Positions 21,433-28,010 of a DNA stretch of 64,000 nt are shown one piece after another. The notes beneath the pieces are model-generated. The model did not search any database and was not told the origin of the DNA. It saw nothing but the letters and a program-made list of their open reading frames with translations. Source of the stretch: a bacterium (GTDB lineage: Bacteria; UBA8248); contig OZ241326.1 in assembly GCA_965199855.1 (NCBI GenBank), positions 2,367,486-2,431,485 on the forward strand, in the 5' to 3' direction. Each line of letters begins with the position of its first letter. The first letter of the stretch is position 1. Made by a program: the position numbers and the translations under genes.

Positions 21433-21507
21433 TCCGGCGTAGCTCAACGGCAGAGCAATCGGCTGTTAACCGATGGGTTGTAGGTTCGAATCCTACCGCC
21501 GGAGCCA
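21433..21507 (+). tRNA. tRNA-Asn (anticodon GTT)
   Basis: Acceptor tccggcg/cgccgga, anticodon stem atcgg/ccgat with loop ctGTTaa, T-arm gtagg-ttcgaat-cctac, discriminator G, encoded CCA. Confidence 0.85.
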
Positions 21508-21577
21508 TGGGGGAGGGGGGCAACGGGCCGCCCATTGCAAGTTCTTGACTCCAAGACCGGCGAAAGGAGGCTTGACC

Positions 21578-23455
21578 GTGCTCTTTGCGGAAGCCAAAGA
21601 TAGGATCCGGAGCTGGATTCGCCGCCTTATCAAGTGGCTGACCAAGCCCGAATATCCCACAGAGGCACCCGAACCAATTCCATCGAACGAGGCAAGGCCG
21701 GAGACAACCCACATACTGGCGTCTCCCCCAACTACGGCATCGCCAAAGTCAGAACCGGCCTCTCCTTCCGACCCAGGCGAAGGCACCGACGCGGAACCCA
21801 AGACAACGGACGATTCAGCAAGCAAAGAAGAGCCCAAGAAAGAACCGCGCAAGATAGGACCGAGACGTATCAAGCCGGACAACAATCGCCAAAAACCAAA
21901 TCGCCCCGCACAACTCACCCGCCCCTTCACTCCCAGGGCGGAGTTGCTCTGCCGCCAAGCTCGGGGTTCATCCTGGGAGTTAATTCTGTCCGTTCCCGAA
22001 GAATGCGGCATTGTGAAAATACAACATGACAACAACCCCTTGTCAGTCGACGAAAACGGCGAATGTCGCCCGTCATCATTCTCCGGCACCCTGAAAGTTG
22101 AATACAGCGACGGAAAAACTGACGAGATTATCCCATTGGTCTGCGACAAGACGCCGCTGGTTTTTAAAATGCGGAACGGCTGGCAAGGGTCTGGCCGCAA
22201 AATTAGCGGAATTACTCGTGGGCACTTCATTGTTTTCACGCCTGCTGAATGGAAGCGAACGGGTCGCGTTCCGGTAGAAGCCGAGAACTGCGTGGACGCT
22301 GACTTCCGGGCGCACTACTTCCATGCGCGCAAGAACGACGCAAACGATGAAATTGGCGGATTTAAGGAATATGAAGTCCCGTTGACCCCAACCGGATTCG
22401 AGTTGGAAGGTACTAGAATTTTCGATGATTCTGAAGATGGGGAACTATTCGTTGATACAGTTCCAAGGGTGAAGCCCGCGTCCGGCATCGTCTGGGCGCG
22501 CGTGGGCGAAGAGCGGCAGAGAGGCTGGTCTGGAGAAAATTTCAGACCCGATGACAAATCTCTCAAGAAAGTTCTGAATGGCCGCCAGAGGCGATTTTAT
22601 GTCCGCGTCTATGACGACGCGCCCAAGTTGATGGACAGCGGCGAGTTCCGCTATTACGCGGATCTGCAAGATATTCAGGTGAATGGCGTATCGTATTCGC
22701 AGGACATGCTGTTGCTCCCCACGTCGGACGGGCATTCGCCAACAAGACTGCAATTCATTGCCCGGAATGGAGAGCTGATCTCCCAAGATCGGCTGGAATT
22801 GAAAGGAAACAACCCTCACGCGGCCATTACGCCAGATGGCGTTTTGACAATAGCCCCACACCCGGATGGCGATGAAATAACCTTAGTCTTAAAAGCCAAT
22901 ACAAGTAGCGTGGCCGTCAAGCTCCACTTGCCGCGCGTCTGGTGGAGGCTTGAGCGATCAGGAGAGGAGCCAAGCAGGTGGGGCGACCAACCCCTAAATA
23001 TGACGCGCGATGAGTTTCGAGATCGGGCCAATAAGAGCACCGTGATAAAATTGCGATTGCCTTCACGCATCAAATCTGCCGATGTGGGATTTGGTGATAA
23101 TCTGGACCGGAGACTTCCCATAGGGGACGGATTGCCACTTGGGAACTTTATCGATTATACGGAAATCGACAATCCATCAAGTGAAGAGGTCGAACTGCGA
23201 ATTCGATGCAATAGTGAAAGGCTAACTCTAATCCAACTTGCCGCTGACTTACCTGCCCCTACAAAGAAGCCTCTAACAAACAATATGCCAGACACTTGTC
23301 CAAGCGGCAACAAGGGATTCAGCTGCGGCGAATTGCGGAAGGCCAATCTCACAGCCGCCGATGCGAAACGCTTGCAATTACGTATCGACAGGCGACGCCG
23401 CAGCGAACACAATAGCAATATAGACAGGCTCATGGAGATTGGAAACGATGCCTGA
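21578..23455 (+). CDS. island protein A: 625-aa protein of unknown function (N-terminal amphipathic helix, Pro/Thr/Ser/Glu-rich linker, ~480-aa beta-rich C-terminal region)
   Basis: The track ORF starts inside the tRNA; the likely true start is GTG 21578, with GGAGG 8 nt upstream. The protein runs VLFAEAKDRIRSWIRRLIKWLTKPEY..., then a PTS/E-rich segment, then ...GHFIVFTPAEWKRTG... No nuclease, methylase, ATPase or other catalytic motif was recognised by eye. It overlaps gene B by 8 nt. Confidence 0.6.
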   Translation: MLFAEAKDRIRSWIRRLIKWLTKPEYPTEAPEPIPSNEARPETTHILASPPTTASPKSEPASPSDPGEGTDAEPKTTDDSASKEEPKKEPRKIGPRRIKPDNNRQKPNRPAQLTRPFTPRAELLCRQARGSSWELILSVPEECGIVKIQHDNNPLSVDENGECRPSSFSGTLKVEYSDGKTDEIIPLVCDKTPLVFKMRNGWQGSGRKISGITRGHFIVFTPAEWKRTGRVPVEAENCVDADFRAHYFHARKNDANDEIGGFKEYEVPLTPTGFELEGTRIFDDSEDGELFVDTVPRVKPASGIVWARVGEERQRGWSGENFRPDDKSLKKVLNGRQRRFYVRVYDDAPKLMDSGEFRYYADLQDIQVNGVSYSQDMLLLPTSDGHSPTRLQFIARNGELISQDRLELKGNNPHAAITPDGVLTIAPHPDGDEITLVLKANTSSVAVKLHLPRVWWRLERSGEEPSRWGDQPLNMTRDEFRDRANKSTVIKLRLPSRIKSADVGFGDNLDRRLPIGDGLPLGNFIDYTEIDNPSSEEVELRIRCNSERLTLIQLAADLPAPTKKPLTNNMPDTCPSGNKGFSCGELRKANLTAADAKRLQLRIDRRRRSEHNSNIDRLMEIGNDA

Positions 23456-26400
23456 AACTCGTGACATTGAGAGATGGGTTGATACGATTGGTGCTCGCTA
23501 CGAAAATTATTTGAAAACCTCGTTTTACTTCAAGGACTCGAAACTCCGTGAATCGTTTCAACATGCGTTACAGGGTGGCCGCCTGCTGAAAGGGCCTTTT
23601 CCCGAACCGGCGCGCGACTTCAAAAAAGGCGTAGACGCGAGGCAACTGGCGAAAGAATGTTTTCCTGACAGGGGCGGCGCTCTACTTCCGGCATTACGGA
23701 AAGGCGCTTTGTATGTCCATCAAGAGCGCGCCGTGCGTTGTACTCACACAGACCAGCGGAACATCGTGGTCGCCACCGGTACCGCCAGCGGCAAGACGGA
23801 GAGTTTTCTCTACCCGATTCTGTTCGAGTTGTACCGCCAATACTTGGCGGGAGAACTCAGCGAGCCCGGCGTGCGGGCCATGATCCTGTATCCGATGAAC
23901 GCGCTCGCCAACGATCAAAGAGAACGCCTTGGCGAAATTTGCGAGCAGCTACGCAAGGAGGGTTCAGATTTTGCCCCCATTTTCGGACAGTACATCGGAC
24001 AAACACCCGAAGATCAAAGAGACCGTCGGCGTAACGCCTCTACTCGGGAAGAGGAACGCCTGCCCGGCGAGTTGGTTTTCCGGGAAGAGATGCGGAACAA
24101 TCCGCCGCATATCCTGCTGACCAATTATTCCATGCTGGAATACCTTCTTATTCGTCCGAGCGACAGCCCGCTTTTCGACGTAGACCGAGGCAAACACTGG
24201 CAATTCATCGTGCTTGATGAAGCTCACCAGTACCGGGGCGCCAAAGGGATGGAGATGGGCATGTTAATCCGGCGTCTCAAGCAACGGTTGCGCGATGGAG
24301 GGCGCGAAGATCGTTTCCGCTGCATCGCCACCAGCGCGACCATCGCCACCGGCGAAGGCGAAGAAGACAAACAGGTCGTCGCGAAATTCGCCGAGGAACT
24401 CTTTGCCGAGCCTTTTCGGACATCCGGCATCATTTTGGGAGAACACGAACAACAGTCACTCAAAAAGGAGCCGCGTCGCTTCCATGCGTTCGCGCGCGCC
24501 TTGGAAGGGGCTTTTTTGCTCCATGATGACGGTGAGGATGCGGTCATCCTCAATCGCAAGAGAGAGGTTGGGTGCCGCGCCGAGCCCTTGGAAATCGCGT
24601 TATGCCGGGAATGCGGACAACACTATTACGTCGGCCGGGAAAATGATGGCAAGTTGAAAGAAGCGGTGCGAGATCCCAGTCATCCGAAATTTGGCGTGGA
24701 TTATTACCTGCCATTGGAAAGCGATAATGCCGCTTCTCATGTCTTATGCCGATGCTGCGGCCAACTCTCCGCCGACGGGTCTGCTTGCGATTGCGGCGAC
24801 AGCGCCTCAATTCTCGTCAAGAAGTGCGAATCTCATAAAGAACATCCGGATCACCTGAAGAAATGCGAAGCCTGCGGCTATAGCCGCGGCGGCATCGGCG
24901 ACCCTGTTCAGGAAATCGTGCACGGCTCCGACGGCCCCAACACCGTCATCGCGACCGCCCTTCACGAGTTGCTACCGGAAAGCAGGCGCAAGGTGCTGGC
25001 GTTCGCCGACAGTCGGCAGGAGGCCGCGTTCTTCGCCTGGTATGCTCAGGACTCCTATACGGAGGTACGCGACCGCAATTTGATGTTGCGCGCTTTGAAG
25101 GCTGGGGCAATCGATTCTGAAGGACTGTCCATTGACGACCTCAAAAACCGACTGTTCAAACAGTGGGAACAGTCTGGTCTGTTTGAGAGAGCGGATACCA
25201 GGGAAAGCAAGGACCGAAAGGTGCTGACGGCAATCCTCGGAGAAGCGTTGACGGACGAGAAGAGGCTGTCCTTAAGTGGAGTCGGTTTGGTCAGGTGGTT
25301 CGTCAAAATCCCGGACGACTTGAGACCGCCGGCCTCAATGCTGGAGCCGCCTTGGAATCTAACGGATGAAGAAGCGCGCCGCCTTCTCGCATATCTTTTA
25401 GACGAGTGGCGTGTGCGCTACGCCTTGGCTTTGCCGGACGGTGCAGGGACCCCGTTATGGAACGACGTATCACCCCTGCGGCGGCAACAGGCTTACGGTC
25501 TGGGCACCCCCGGCAAAAGAAAAAACATCGCAGAATGGGGCAGCTCCCAATCCGCAATCGTTGGTCACTTCCTGCGCCGGCTCCTTATGCGAAATGGACA
25601 GTCCGGCAATGACGACCATTCACAATCGATCATGCTGATGAAGGATGTATGGAGCGCATTGCGCGAGCGGGATAAAAAATATGGCCAAAAAGCCGACCAA
25701 ATTCTTTCGTCCGCTAACACAAACGGGACATTCCGCCTCAACTCGCGCTGGCTGCGGACCAAGCTCGCCGAGCCATCTGAAATTTGGGAGTGCGACACGT
25801 GCGCAAGCCTGAGCACCCACAACATTCACAACATCTGTCCTCGAAACGGATGCCCCGGAAATCTGTCGCCTGCCGGCCAATCACGGCTTGAAGAAAACCA
25901 CTATCGAATCCTTTACGAAAAACCCGGCCTGCCACCCACGCTATGCGCTGAAGAACATACGGCTCAAATCGAAAGCAGCGAGGCGCGCCAGAGACAGGAT
26001 CGCTTCAAAAGCGGACAAATACACCTCCTCAGTTCCTCAACCACGTTTGAGGTTGGCGTCGACTTGGGCGATCTCGAGGTCGTATTCCTCCGCAACGTGC
26101 CGCCGGAGCCGTTCAACTATACCCAGCGCGTCGGGAGGGCGGGACGCCGAGAAACGCCGGGATTGGCGCTGACCTACTGCCGCCGCAACCCACATGACTT
26201 GTACCACTACGAAGACCCGGAAAAGCGCGTGATAGAGGGAAAGGTGCAACCCCCAAGGCTCCGGATGACCAACGACAAAATCATCTCCCGGCACATGGCC
26301 GCCGTCGCTCTGTCCGCATTTTTCAAGAATGAGGGAAACGAGGAACGCTTCAGGAATGTCGAATCCTTCATCGGCGATTGGGAGAATCCTCGCGCCGTTT

Positions 26401-27716
26401 CGGACCTGAAGCAGTTTTGCGAAAACAACGAGGCGTTGAAGAATTCGCTACTCCGGAGCGTGCCGGAAGCCATGCGCGAAACAACCGGACTCAACAGCAA
26501 TGATTGGATTAAAATCATCGCCGGCCCGGACAGCCGCCTTGACCGAGCCGAGAAAGAAGTTTCCGACGACTATCAGCGCATGGAAGCGCTTGAAAAAGAG
26601 TACTCGGACAACAGCAAATATAGCGACGCGAAACGTATCAAGCAACGGAGGGATACCATCGCTAACGAACAAACCTTGACCTTCCTCTCACGCAAAGCCG
26701 TAATTCCCAAATATGGCTTTCCGGTTGACGTGGTGGAACTCGATACCCGGGAACTCGATACCCGGCCGCAAAACAGAAGTTCGGCAAGAGTATCGTTGCA
26801 AAGAGACCTGTCTCAAGCCATTGCCGAATATGCGCCGGGCGGTAAAGTCGTGGCGAACAAGCAAGAGTGGGAATCATGCGGTGTAAAAGTAATTTCCGGA
26901 AAGCAATTTCCGGTCAAGCGTTACGCTTACGACGATGCCCGCTATTTTCAGCAATGTGATGAAGAGGGCAATCTTCCAAACAGCAGAAGCAGAAGATACC
27001 TTTCTCCGGTCTTCGGTTTCGTGACACCGCTATTTGAGAAACCCAAGAAGCCGCGGGGACGAGCGCAACGCCTATACACAACACGACCGTTTTTTCCGGG
27101 TTTTGATGAAGAACCGGAATCCAAGGACCTGTTCGGGATTACGGTAACAAAAGCGCAACCGGGAAGCTTGGTCATCCTGTGCGAGGGGCGGAATCAGAAA
27201 GGGTTCTATATTTGCCGCACTTGCGGAAGCCACATGACGAAGCCAGCGAGCGCGCACAAGACGCCGGCAGGATCCAAATGTACCGAGAGATTAGAGAAAT
27301 TTTCGCTCGGGCACGAGTTGGTTACGGATGTAGTGCGCCTGCAATTTTCAGACTTGGGCGACCAGTGGGACGCTTACTCCCTCGCTTACGCCATACAGCT
27401 GGGCGCGTCGAAAACAATGGATGTGCCGGACACGGACTTGAACGTCACTATCACTGGCGACAAAGCATCGGACGAGACGGCGATTGTCTTATATGACAAT
27501 GTTCCCGGCGGTGCCGGTCTGGTGGCGCAGTTGGAACACGAGGGTATATTTCGAGAAATGCTCGGCAATGCCCGAGAACGGGTACAAGGCGGATGTGGCT
27601 GTGACTCAAGTTGCTACGGTTGTCTGCGCAGCTACCGCAACCAGTTCGCGCACCCGCACTTGAATCGCAAAAGAGCTCAAGCCTTTTTACCCGCCGTAGG
27701 CGTCGGGGCGGAATAG
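23448..27716 (+). CDS. island protein B: large DExH-box SF2 helicase with a Zn-ribbon insertion and C-terminal DUF1998/MZB Cys4 domain (DruE/MrfA/DrmA-like)
   Basis: The track start at 23439 is TTG; ATG 23448 gives MPETRDIERW... Motif I VVATGTASGKTESF, Ia ILYPMNALANDQ, II VLDEAHQY, III ATSATI, VI QRVGRAGRRETPG. An insertion between the RecA-like halves carries four CxxC pairs (LCRECGQHYY..., CRCCGQ, CDCGD, CEACGY). The C-terminus CRTCGSH...C..GGCGCDSSCYGCLRSYRNQFAHPHL matches the DUF1998 signature. Confidence 0.85.
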   Translation: MPETRDIERWVDTIGARYENYLKTSFYFKDSKLRESFQHALQGGRLLKGPFPEPARDFKKGVDARQLAKECFPDRGGALLPALRKGALYVHQERAVRCTHTDQRNIVVATGTASGKTESFLYPILFELYRQYLAGELSEPGVRAMILYPMNALANDQRERLGEICEQLRKEGSDFAPIFGQYIGQTPEDQRDRRRNASTREEERLPGELVFREEMRNNPPHILLTNYSMLEYLLIRPSDSPLFDVDRGKHWQFIVLDEAHQYRGAKGMEMGMLIRRLKQRLRDGGREDRFRCIATSATIATGEGEEDKQVVAKFAEELFAEPFRTSGIILGEHEQQSLKKEPRRFHAFARALEGAFLLHDDGEDAVILNRKREVGCRAEPLEIALCRECGQHYYVGRENDGKLKEAVRDPSHPKFGVDYYLPLESDNAASHVLCRCCGQLSADGSACDCGDSASILVKKCESHKEHPDHLKKCEACGYSRGGIGDPVQEIVHGSDGPNTVIATALHELLPESRRKVLAFADSRQEAAFFAWYAQDSYTEVRDRNLMLRALKAGAIDSEGLSIDDLKNRLFKQWEQSGLFERADTRESKDRKVLTAILGEALTDEKRLSLSGVGLVRWFVKIPDDLRPPASMLEPPWNLTDEEARRLLAYLLDEWRVRYALALPDGAGTPLWNDVSPLRRQQAYGLGTPGKRKNIAEWGSSQSAIVGHFLRRLLMRNGQSGNDDHSQSIMLMKDVWSALRERDKKYGQKADQILSSANTNGTFRLNSRWLRTKLAEPSEIWECDTCASLSTHNIHNICPRNGCPGNLSPAGQSRLEENHYRILYEKPGLPPTLCAEEHTAQIESSEARQRQDRFKSGQIHLLSSSTTFEVGVDLGDLEVVFLRNVPPEPFNYTQRVGRAGRRETPGLALTYCRRNPHDLYHYEDPEKRVIEGKVQPPRLRMTNDKIISRHMAAVALSAFFKNEGNEERFRNVESFIGDWENPRAVSDLKQFCENNEALKNSLLRSVPEAMRETTGLNSNDWIKIIAGPDSRLDRAEKEVSDDYQRMEALEKEYSDNSKYSDAKRIKQRRDTIANEQTLTFLSRKAVIPKYGFPVDVVELDTRELDTRPQNRSSARVSLQRDLSQAIAEYAPGGKVVANKQEWESCGVKVISGKQFPVKRYAYDDARYFQQCDEEGNLPNSRSRRYLSPVFGFVTPLFEKPKKPRGRAQRLYTTRPFFPGFDEEPESKDLFGITVTKAQPGSLVILCEGRNQKGFYICRTCGSHMTKPASAHKTPAGSKCTERLEKFSLGHELVTDVVRLQFSDLGDQWDAYSLAYAIQLGASKTMDVPDTDLNVTITGDKASDETAIVLYDNVPGGAGLVAQLEHEGIFREMLGNARERVQGGCGCDSSCYGCLRSYRNQFAHPHLNRKRAQAFLPAVGVGAE

Positions 27717-28010
27717 CCGAAAACACTTTCATTGAGGTTCGTTGGGCGGCTTTTTCGAATTGCAACGCCCCCCTAGTCCCGGCGGTAGCCCCGGCATTTG
27801 GCGAGGATGGCGCCGTCGCGCGAGAACCACTCGGCGGTGAAGCCCGTCCCCTTGGGCAGAAACTTCACCAGGAGCAGGCCCTCGCTCCTGCCGCGCCGCC
27901 AGCGATACCACGAGCCCCTGGAGTCCCGCCCGTCCAGTTTGAGTCCCGTCCTCTTGAGGCGGCTGCCCTGGATGAAGCCCTCCTTCTCCCGGAAGCCGGC
28001 GGCGATGCCC

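Follow-up and report, generated by a model that had tools for sequence, protein, structure and literature searches.

In ARMADA, BRIGADE, TALON and Druantia helicases, a β-barrel zinc-binding module (ZBM) with at least two CxxC motifs has been described at the start of RecA2, followed by an adjoining MarR-like domain with a further ZBM near its C-terminus (Bell et al., 2025; PMC12458937). In the same work a BrxA-like helical domain, located directly after RecA1, was proposed as a shared derived feature. Here we describe a DruE-like helicase encoded on the forward strand, at positions 23448..27716, of a 64 000-nucleotide stretch of a bacterial genome from the UBA8248 lineage (assembly GCA_965199855.1, contig OZ241326.1, positions 2,367,486 to 2,431,485; this whole stretch is called the window below). 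The focus of the analysis is a cysteine-rich insertion within the core of this helicase, which is the already described, and named, double zinc-binding domain of DruE-like helicases. Only two aspects of it are mildly new, namely that its second zinc site appears to be nested and that the protein carrying it has a trimmed architecture.

The best described homologue is the type III-A DruE of Escherichia coli (PDB 9tu7-9tuc; Himpich et al., 2026, bioRxiv 10.64898/2026.05.13.724758). In that protein the double zinc-binding domain (dZBD) contains two zinc motifs, with one of them in contact with DNA, and together with the DBD it forms an entry channel for the duplex. Moreover, deletion of the dZBD lock loop (residues 505-523) abolishes defence (Himpich et al., 2026). 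In a second electron cryomicroscopy (cryo-EM) preprint on DruE the corresponding domain, termed ZBM_L, grips the duplex together with the Cap domain (bioRxiv 10.64898/2026.05.12.722862). A further point of comparison is the validated type III system of Mycobacterium smegmatis, which consists of a DruH protein of 1132 residues and a DruE protein of 1667 residues (PMC13316683).

Results

The cysteine-rich insertion matches the dZBD of DruE

Translation of window positions 23439-27716 (forward strand) gives a single long open reading frame (ORF) containing all four of the cysteine motifs that the initial annotation had listed, LCRECGQHYY, CRCCGQ, CDCGD and CEACGY. The ORF listing starts at a TTG at 23439; the ATG at 23448 is taken as the real start because homologues begin 'MPD..', and the residues of the resultant 1422-residue protein are counted here from the Met of this ATG. 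The insertion had been placed between the DEAH/SAT motifs and motif VI, and this is indeed where it lies, after TSAT (residues 295-298) and before QRVGRAGRR (residues 893-901, around nucleotide 26124). The interval first assigned to it, 24590-24900, covers the core of the domain; the whole domain is wider and spans nucleotides 24474..24932 on the forward strand. As judged from AlphaFold2 (AF2) modelling and from the domain profile, this region (residues ~343-495, some 150 in all) is an all-β double zinc-binding domain situated after RecA1 and ahead of the first RecA2 strand.

Four cysteine knuckles can be recognised in the domain, all encoded on the forward strand. Knuckle 1, C386-R-E-C389 (24603..24614; codons 24603-05 and 24612-14), forms the first half of what is termed here the outer site, and knuckle 4, C473-E-A-C476 (24864..24875; codons 24864-66 and 24873-75), forms its second half. 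Between them lie the two halves of the inner site, knuckle 2, C434-R-C-C437 (24747..24758; codons 24747-49 and 24756-58), and knuckle 3, C447-D-C449 (24786..24794; codons 24786-88 and 24792-94). The description of these motifs as four CxxC pairs therefore holds for pairs 1, 2 and 4 and fails for the third, which is CxC here and CxH in many relatives. The loop and hairpin from L403 to P422 (LKEAVRDPSHPKFGVDYYLP; 24654..24713, forward strand; consensus GxLxEAxRDP...FGVxYYLP) is the positional equivalent of the DruE 'lock', and within it the pattern LxEAxRDP..FGVxYYLP is the most conserved stretch of the zinc domain outside the cysteines.

A full-length profile (the query plus 49 relatives) was aligned with the 2108-residue chain 9tu7_Y over nearly its full length (E = 2.7e-186), and this alignment is unbroken through the zinc domain, with profile positions 11-677 matched to 9tu7 residues 20-692. 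The domain profile alone matches residues 427-655 of 9tu7_Y (E = 2.2e-8), a segment that includes the dZBD lock loop, and residues 606-847 of 9wae_A (E = 4.7e-11). In these alignments knuckles 1 and 4 are set opposite Cys pairs in both structures, knuckle 1 aligning with RC483SGC486G of 9tu7 and knuckle 4 with CVCCG of 9tu7 and CCPKCG of 9wae. Profiles alone reached DruE: a Pfam search with the zinc domain by itself returned nothing significant (best match Ribosomal_L37e, E = 2.9), nor did a single-sequence search of the PDB with the domain (best match Cas12f1, E = 2.9). The top match of the whole-protein model in Foldseek was MrfA, in a fold library without DruE entries, so that this search is silent on the dZBD.

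The predicted fold of the region is well defined. In a first AF2 model, covering residues 1-957, a β-rich region of moderate confidence appeared at the position of the zinc domain, and a domain-only model (residues 335-535, built from a more diverse alignment) reached a mean pLDDT score (predicted local distance difference test) of 80, with values of 88-96 over residues 355-484. In the domain-only model nine β-strands precede the initial helices of RecA2. In the predicted secondary structure C386 closes the strand 381-386 and C389 precedes the strand 392-399, and knuckles 1 and 2 each sit at the end of a strand that is followed by a hairpin turn, as is seen in zinc ribbons.

The position and the surroundings of the domain are the same as those of the E. 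coli dZBD. Both follow RecA1 and precede the FxDSRQ strand of RecA2, both are flanked by RxHxFxR...G.F at the start and by P.r....G..ap before RecA2, and both have two zinc sites per domain with knuckles 1 and 4 on Cys pairs. The two domains differ in length, ~150 residues in the query against ~230 in E. coli DruE, and in the place of the second site, which is N-terminal to knuckle 1 in the E. coli protein but nested between knuckles 1 and 4 here. Moreover, the dZBD of E. coli DruE is preceded by a WH/BrxA-like domain, and that protein closes with two PLD domains at its C-terminus; the query is without both.

The zinc domain is followed by a second, mostly helical insertion in RecA2 (residues ~535-780; 25050..25853, forward strand; AF2), which is predicted with pLDDT values of ~84-95 over residues 540-830 of the 1-957 model. 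It ends in a Cys4 cluster, C782/C785/C797/C802 (25791-25853), each Cys of which is present in 50 of 50 representatives (the set is defined below) and which aligns with FWRCSNCERV...CTRC of 9wae. This insertion lies where Bell et al. (2025) place a MarR-like domain with a ZBM near its C-terminus, a match in position. A duplication of part of the zinc domain was considered as a source of this Cys4 cluster (residues 782-802) and was rejected, since hhalign gave a probability of 0.5%.

Taken as a whole, the protein shares with the ARMADA, BRIGADE, TALON and Druantia branch a superfamily 2 (SF2) core, an MZB Cys4, and a β-rich module at the start of RecA2 in which there are at least two CxxC motifs; the ensuing helical insertion with its terminal Cys4 may be the counterpart of the MarR-like domain. 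It differs in that the BrxA-like domain after RecA1 is absent from the compact family to which the query belongs. Because both Cys clusters fit the description of Bell et al. (2025), the insertion is a known domain of this lineage. Within this lineage it is nothing unusual but an ordinary component of DruE-like helicases.

The insertion is absent from MrfA

MrfA/YprA (6znp) shares with the query the RecA1/RecA2 core, query residues 78-302 aligning with 6znp 47-230 and residues 845-959 with 334-447, and the C-terminal MZB Cys4. The earlier suggestion that the insertion is no part of MrfA was borne out: only 104 residues separate the RecA1 and RecA2 anchors in 6znp compared with 543 in the query. 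In contrast to the query, for which five metal sites are predicted, MrfA has no insertion between RecA1 and RecA2 and a single zinc site, that of the MZB domain.

Conservation of the cysteines

Ten Cys residues fall within 91 residues of the zinc domain, against a protein-wide Cys content of 2.25%. The binomial P-value is 4e-5 for a single segment of this length and ~0.05 once corrected for all such segments; since the corrected value is marginal, composition alone is suggestive and the decision falls to conservation.

Conservation was examined in two sets, a representative set consisting of the query and 49 full-length cluster representatives (clustered at 50% identity and sharing 32-60% identity with the query) and a set of 143 domain matches drawn from 80 genome loci together with the representative set. 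In the representative set C386, C389, C473 and C476 are each present in 50 of 50 sequences, C434 and C437 in 49 and C449 in 48, whereas C436 and C460 are unconserved (2/50 and 3/50 respectively). C447 is a Cys in 21 of the 50, and the remaining representatives have C449-x-C or C449-x-H. Across the 143 domain matches, too, C or H is seen at position 451 where 447 is not Cys. The knuckle 1 cysteines are present in all complete domain matches, and the seven Cys positions other than 447 are occupied by Cys in ~133-140 of the 143. These seven are also invariant in the 41-sequence alignment behind the domain profile, and all eight ligand cysteines are invariant in 73 homologues at 67-75% identity. 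Together, seven of the eight cysteines are near-invariant over ~140 homologues from many phyla, at identities from 75% down to ~25%. It had been proposed that a lack of conservation in homologues would count against the zinc-ribbon assignment; the cysteines are conserved to ~25% identity.

Some of the representatives (P0243, P0252, P0259, P0264 and P0266) possess, on the N-terminal side of knuckle 1, a third set of ligands, C..H...CPxC, which occupies the place of the second zinc motif of E. coli DruE. The number of sites in the zinc domain is therefore two or three and varies with the lineage. In addition, the precomputed Pfam family PF27116.1 is assigned to many fragments (P0271-P0329) over the region equivalent to query residues ~342-430, which is the N-terminal half of the zinc domain.

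The four knuckles probably form two nested sites

The manner in which the ligands are lost bears on how they are paired. Among the 143 domain matches, five are without any of the inner ligands (434, 437, 447, 449 and 451), and both outer knuckles are kept in all five. Four of these five proteins are ~1960-2130 residues long, which is the size of DruE III-A. The inner ligands are likewise absent from 9tu7 and 9wae, in which the outer knuckles are aligned to Cys pairs. Because the inner ligands are lost together, it is most likely that the knuckles form nested sites, the outer pair (386/389 and 473/476) making up one site and the inner pair (434/437 with 449 and either 447 or 451) the other. A sequential arrangement (knuckles 1 with 2, and 3 with 4) was abandoned in favour of the nested one on account of this pattern of co-loss. 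Two additional zinc ribbons had been suggested at the outset, and the number is in agreement with the two sites of the dZBD and ZBM_L; what changes is their arrangement, which appears to be nested rather than consecutive.

These patterns suggest that the outer site is universal and ancestral in the lineage, being shared with E. coli DruE, and that the inner site is a separable module. On the same grounds the second zinc site would seem to have moved during the evolution of the lineage.

Architecture of the DruE-like helicase

The gene (23448..27716, forward strand) encodes a YprA-family SF2 helicase. Pfam matches were obtained to DEAD (PF00270, E = 1e-17), Helicase_C (PF00271, E = 1e-10) and MZB/DUF1998 (PF09369, E = 4e-13), and the Walker A, DEAH and motif VI sequences of the SF2 core are invariant across the homologue alignments. 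PADLOC names the protein DruE, the DruE3 and DruE1 models both matching with E-values of 3-4e-154 and with their best stretches mainly in residues ~735-1417.

The RecA1 lobe (23718..24347, forward strand; PF00270 at ORF residues 94-303) contains Walker A and DEAH and has SAT at its C-terminal edge; it aligns with residues 47-230 of MrfA and 85-330 of DruE. The first strand and helix of RecA2 (KVLAFADSRQEAAFFA; 24990..25037, forward strand) align with LTFTDSRQ of 9tu7 and IVFSDSRQDAA of 9wae, and residues F519, D521, R523, A526 and A527 of this segment are invariant in the alignments. Motifs V and VI (QRVGRAGRR) belong to the rest of RecA2, which lies at 25950..26150 on the forward strand (PF00271 at ORF residues 838-904) and aligns with MrfA 334-447 and DruE 1076-1204. 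Further downstream a Cys3His cluster, C1256/C1259/H1270/C1278 (27213..27281, forward strand), is located 5' of the MZB domain and probably within the OB/CON region; its cysteines are kept in 46-47 of the 50 representatives and H1270 is nearly invariant. The MZB/DUF1998 domain itself (27381..27626, forward strand) carries the Cys4 C1383/C1385/C1389/C1392 (27594-27623), with each Cys present in 46-48 of the 50.

Five metal sites are thus predicted in the helicase, namely two in the zinc domain, the Cys4 of the RecA2 insertion, the Cys3His cluster and the MZB Cys4. The count in the initial annotation, two ribbons plus the terminal Cys4, was too low, as it omitted the Cys4 at 25791-25853 and the Cys3His at 27213-27281. 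E. coli DruE reportedly carries five metal sites as well, differently distributed.

The protein ends ~30 residues beyond the MZB Cys4, and neither this tail nor the Pfam search gives any sign of a PLD domain. The spacing between DEAH and the zinc domain is 87-89 residues in the query and its close family (window positions 24220-24480), compared with ~170-230 residues in other relatives, and the alignments show a gap of ~100-130 residues in the query where relatives carry the BrxA-like/WH region. This difference in spacing indicates that the BrxA-like/WH domain is missing from the query helicase.

The upstream partner gene and the locus

Directly upstream of the helicase gene lies a partner gene (21473..23455, forward strand) that, from synteny and hhalign comparison, probably encodes a short DruH-like protein of ~560-640 residues, its start being uncertain. 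The helicase ATG overlaps the stop codon of this gene (23448-23455, ATGCCTGA), which suggests translational coupling. The loci of every close relative and of many distant ones carry the partner gene in this position, directly upstream of the helicase.

When compared by hhalign with an independent alignment of ~1100-1200-residue upstream ORFs, actinobacterial ones included, the partner gave a probability of 96.8% (E = 2.8e-10) over 367 columns, and the homology links its central part with the central region of the longer ORFs. In the sizes of their genes, the loci with these larger upstream ORFs resemble the M. smegmatis type III system. The C-terminus of the partner (ORF residues ~612-654) resembles ribosomal protein eL13 (NCBIfam PRK12277, E = 3e-10; partner profile against eL13 in the PDB, E = 2e-4), and its N-terminal ~150 residues are rich in Pro, Lys and Glu and of low complexity. 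No Pfam family was assigned to the partner, and eL13 was the only match of its profile in the PDB. No PADLOC model matched the partner or the larger upstream ORFs in the loci of relatives, and no DruH was called.

The G+C content of the two-gene module (~21500-27800) is 52-58%, against 64-70% in its flanks, which suggests that the two genes were acquired horizontally. The neighbouring genes are ordinary, with an α/β hydrolase gene upstream and, downstream on the minus strand, genes for an M48 peptidase and a nucleoside transporter. In one related locus (L001, 13288-15464) the helicase is followed by a gene for an Eco57I-type methyltransferase and by an XhoI-like fragment; nothing comparable is present in the window.

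The most fitting reading of the locus is a compact module resembling Druantia type III-B, comprising a DruH-like partner and a DruE-like helicase, for which a role in defence is predicted. With Druantia III-B systems such as MSMEG_1253/1254 of M. smegmatis (PMC13316683) it shares two overlapping genes and a DruE without PLD. It differs from them in the length of the helicase (~1420 residues against ~1500-1670; identity to the actinobacterial proteins is ~30%) and in that of the partner, which has ~560-640 residues and ends in the eL13-like basic motif, against ~1130. The difference from Druantia III-A lies in the two C-terminal PLD nuclease domains of the III-A DruE, neither of which is present on the query.

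Distribution of the compact family

Members of the query family share a helicase of ~1400-1440 residues without the BrxA-like/WH and PLD domains, the nested inner knuckle, and a half-length DruH-like partner with an eL13-like tail. They are found mostly in uncultured Latescibacteria, Binatia, Acidobacteriota and Dadabacteria and in sponge-associated lineages. The close relatives (58-70% identity; loci L004-L012, L025 and L031) all come from metagenome-assembled genomes, and their taxa include Latescibacteria, Candidatus Binatia, Longimicrobiales, Dadabacteria, Vicinamibacteraceae, Thermoanaerobaculia, Bryobacterales, Limisphaerales and the sponge-associated Candidatus Spongiihabitans. A copy that is 99% identical is present on a 152-kb JGI metagenome contig (L002).

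Discussion

The best overall explanation of the insertion, and one in which we place high confidence, is that it is the counterpart of the dZBD in a compact DruE-like helicase, where it would hold two nested structural zinc ions and provide a platform for the duplex. By analogy with E. coli DruE, the zinc ions would stiffen a small β-scaffold at the side of RecA2, and this scaffold, together with the adjoining helical insertion, may form the platform that carries the incoming DNA duplex. The conserved loop LxEAxRDP (residues 403-410) may in turn act like the DruE 'lock' and border the tracking strand close to the fork. The initial annotation had raised nucleic-acid binding as a possibility, and this gains in plausibility from the homologous domain of E. 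coli DruE, which rests on duplex DNA. The bound metal is presumably zinc, the aligned sites being zinc motifs in the solved homologue.

Several observations weigh against this interpretation, or at least against its details. The match to the dZBD rests in part on the flanking RxHxFxR and FxDSRQ motifs, and the hidden Markov model alignment that sets residues 403-422 opposite ~505-523 of 9tu7 is weak in that stretch. No counterpart of the inner site is present in 9tu7, whose extra site (C441/C446/C471/C473) lies N-terminal to knuckle 1; the details of DNA contact may therefore differ between the two proteins. In addition, the domain is slightly acidic overall (20 K+R against 26 D+E), which does not favour a simple role in DNA binding. 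Finally, the AF2 model holds no metal, and the pairing of the cysteines is read from their pattern of loss.

The acidic balance also fits a different function, in which the zinc domain mainly docks the DruH-like partner, or a second helicase protomer, and the zinc ions serve as structural staples without contacting DNA. The partner gene is conserved and translationally coupled to the helicase, defence in M. smegmatis depends on the interaction between DruH and DruE (PMC13316683), complex formation is named among the possible roles of ZBMs by Bell et al. (2025; PMC12458937), and a possible role in structural integrity is put forward in one preprint for the Cys-rich motifs of DruE. We nevertheless regard docking as the main role of the domain as unlikely. 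The homologous domain is on the duplex or on the tracking strand in both DNA-bound E. coli DruE structures, Himpich et al. (2026) find the contact between DruE and DruH to be indirect, and dimerisation of DruE is assigned to other regions, to the DD domain in one study and to the Cap subdomain in the other.

The metal itself could be questioned, as iron-sulfur domains inserted in the motor domains of helicases are a known theme, and eight conserved cysteines within a helicase core might instead bind iron-sulfur clusters of the XPD/DinG or AddB/Dna2 type and to act as a redox or DNA-damage sensor. Zinc is preferred over an iron-sulfur cluster because either Cys or His is used at one ligand position, an alternation typical of zinc sites. 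Moreover, the cysteines form two independent four-ligand sets that are lost separately, the CxxC knuckles are placed at β-hairpin turns in the AF2 model, and the aligned sites of DruE are reported as zinc-binding motifs. The location is also different, the insertion following RecA1 rather than lying inside it, unlike the single four-Cys 4Fe-4S cluster in the first motor domain of XPD/DinG. The iron-sulfur explanation is for these reasons very improbable. Even less can be said for the notion that the Cys enrichment is a chance effect or a lineage-specific decoration without function, for which the marginal corrected P-value of the composition would be the argument. The invariance of the cysteines over so many homologues and phyla already refutes chance, the β-domain is confidently predicted, and the deletion variant of the homologous domain loses defence; the probability left to this explanation is negligible.

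It is conceivable, though on present evidence doubtful, that the query family is an unclassified minimal subtype of Druantia and not ordinary III-B. If so, the inner knuckle and the LxEAxRDP loop would assume the roles of other elements of E. coli DruE.

The analysis adds little to general knowledge of the domain, for which a prediction appeared in 2025 and which cryo-EM of E. coli DruE revealed in 2026. The distinction between a universal outer site and a second site that has apparently moved may guide the choice of the cysteines that mutagenesis should target first. The double zinc domain, the MZB domain and the second insertion in RecA2 are all retained in the naturally trimmed DruE described here (~1420 residues, against ~2100), and this compact form helps to define the minimal set of accessory domains of a Druantia helicase.

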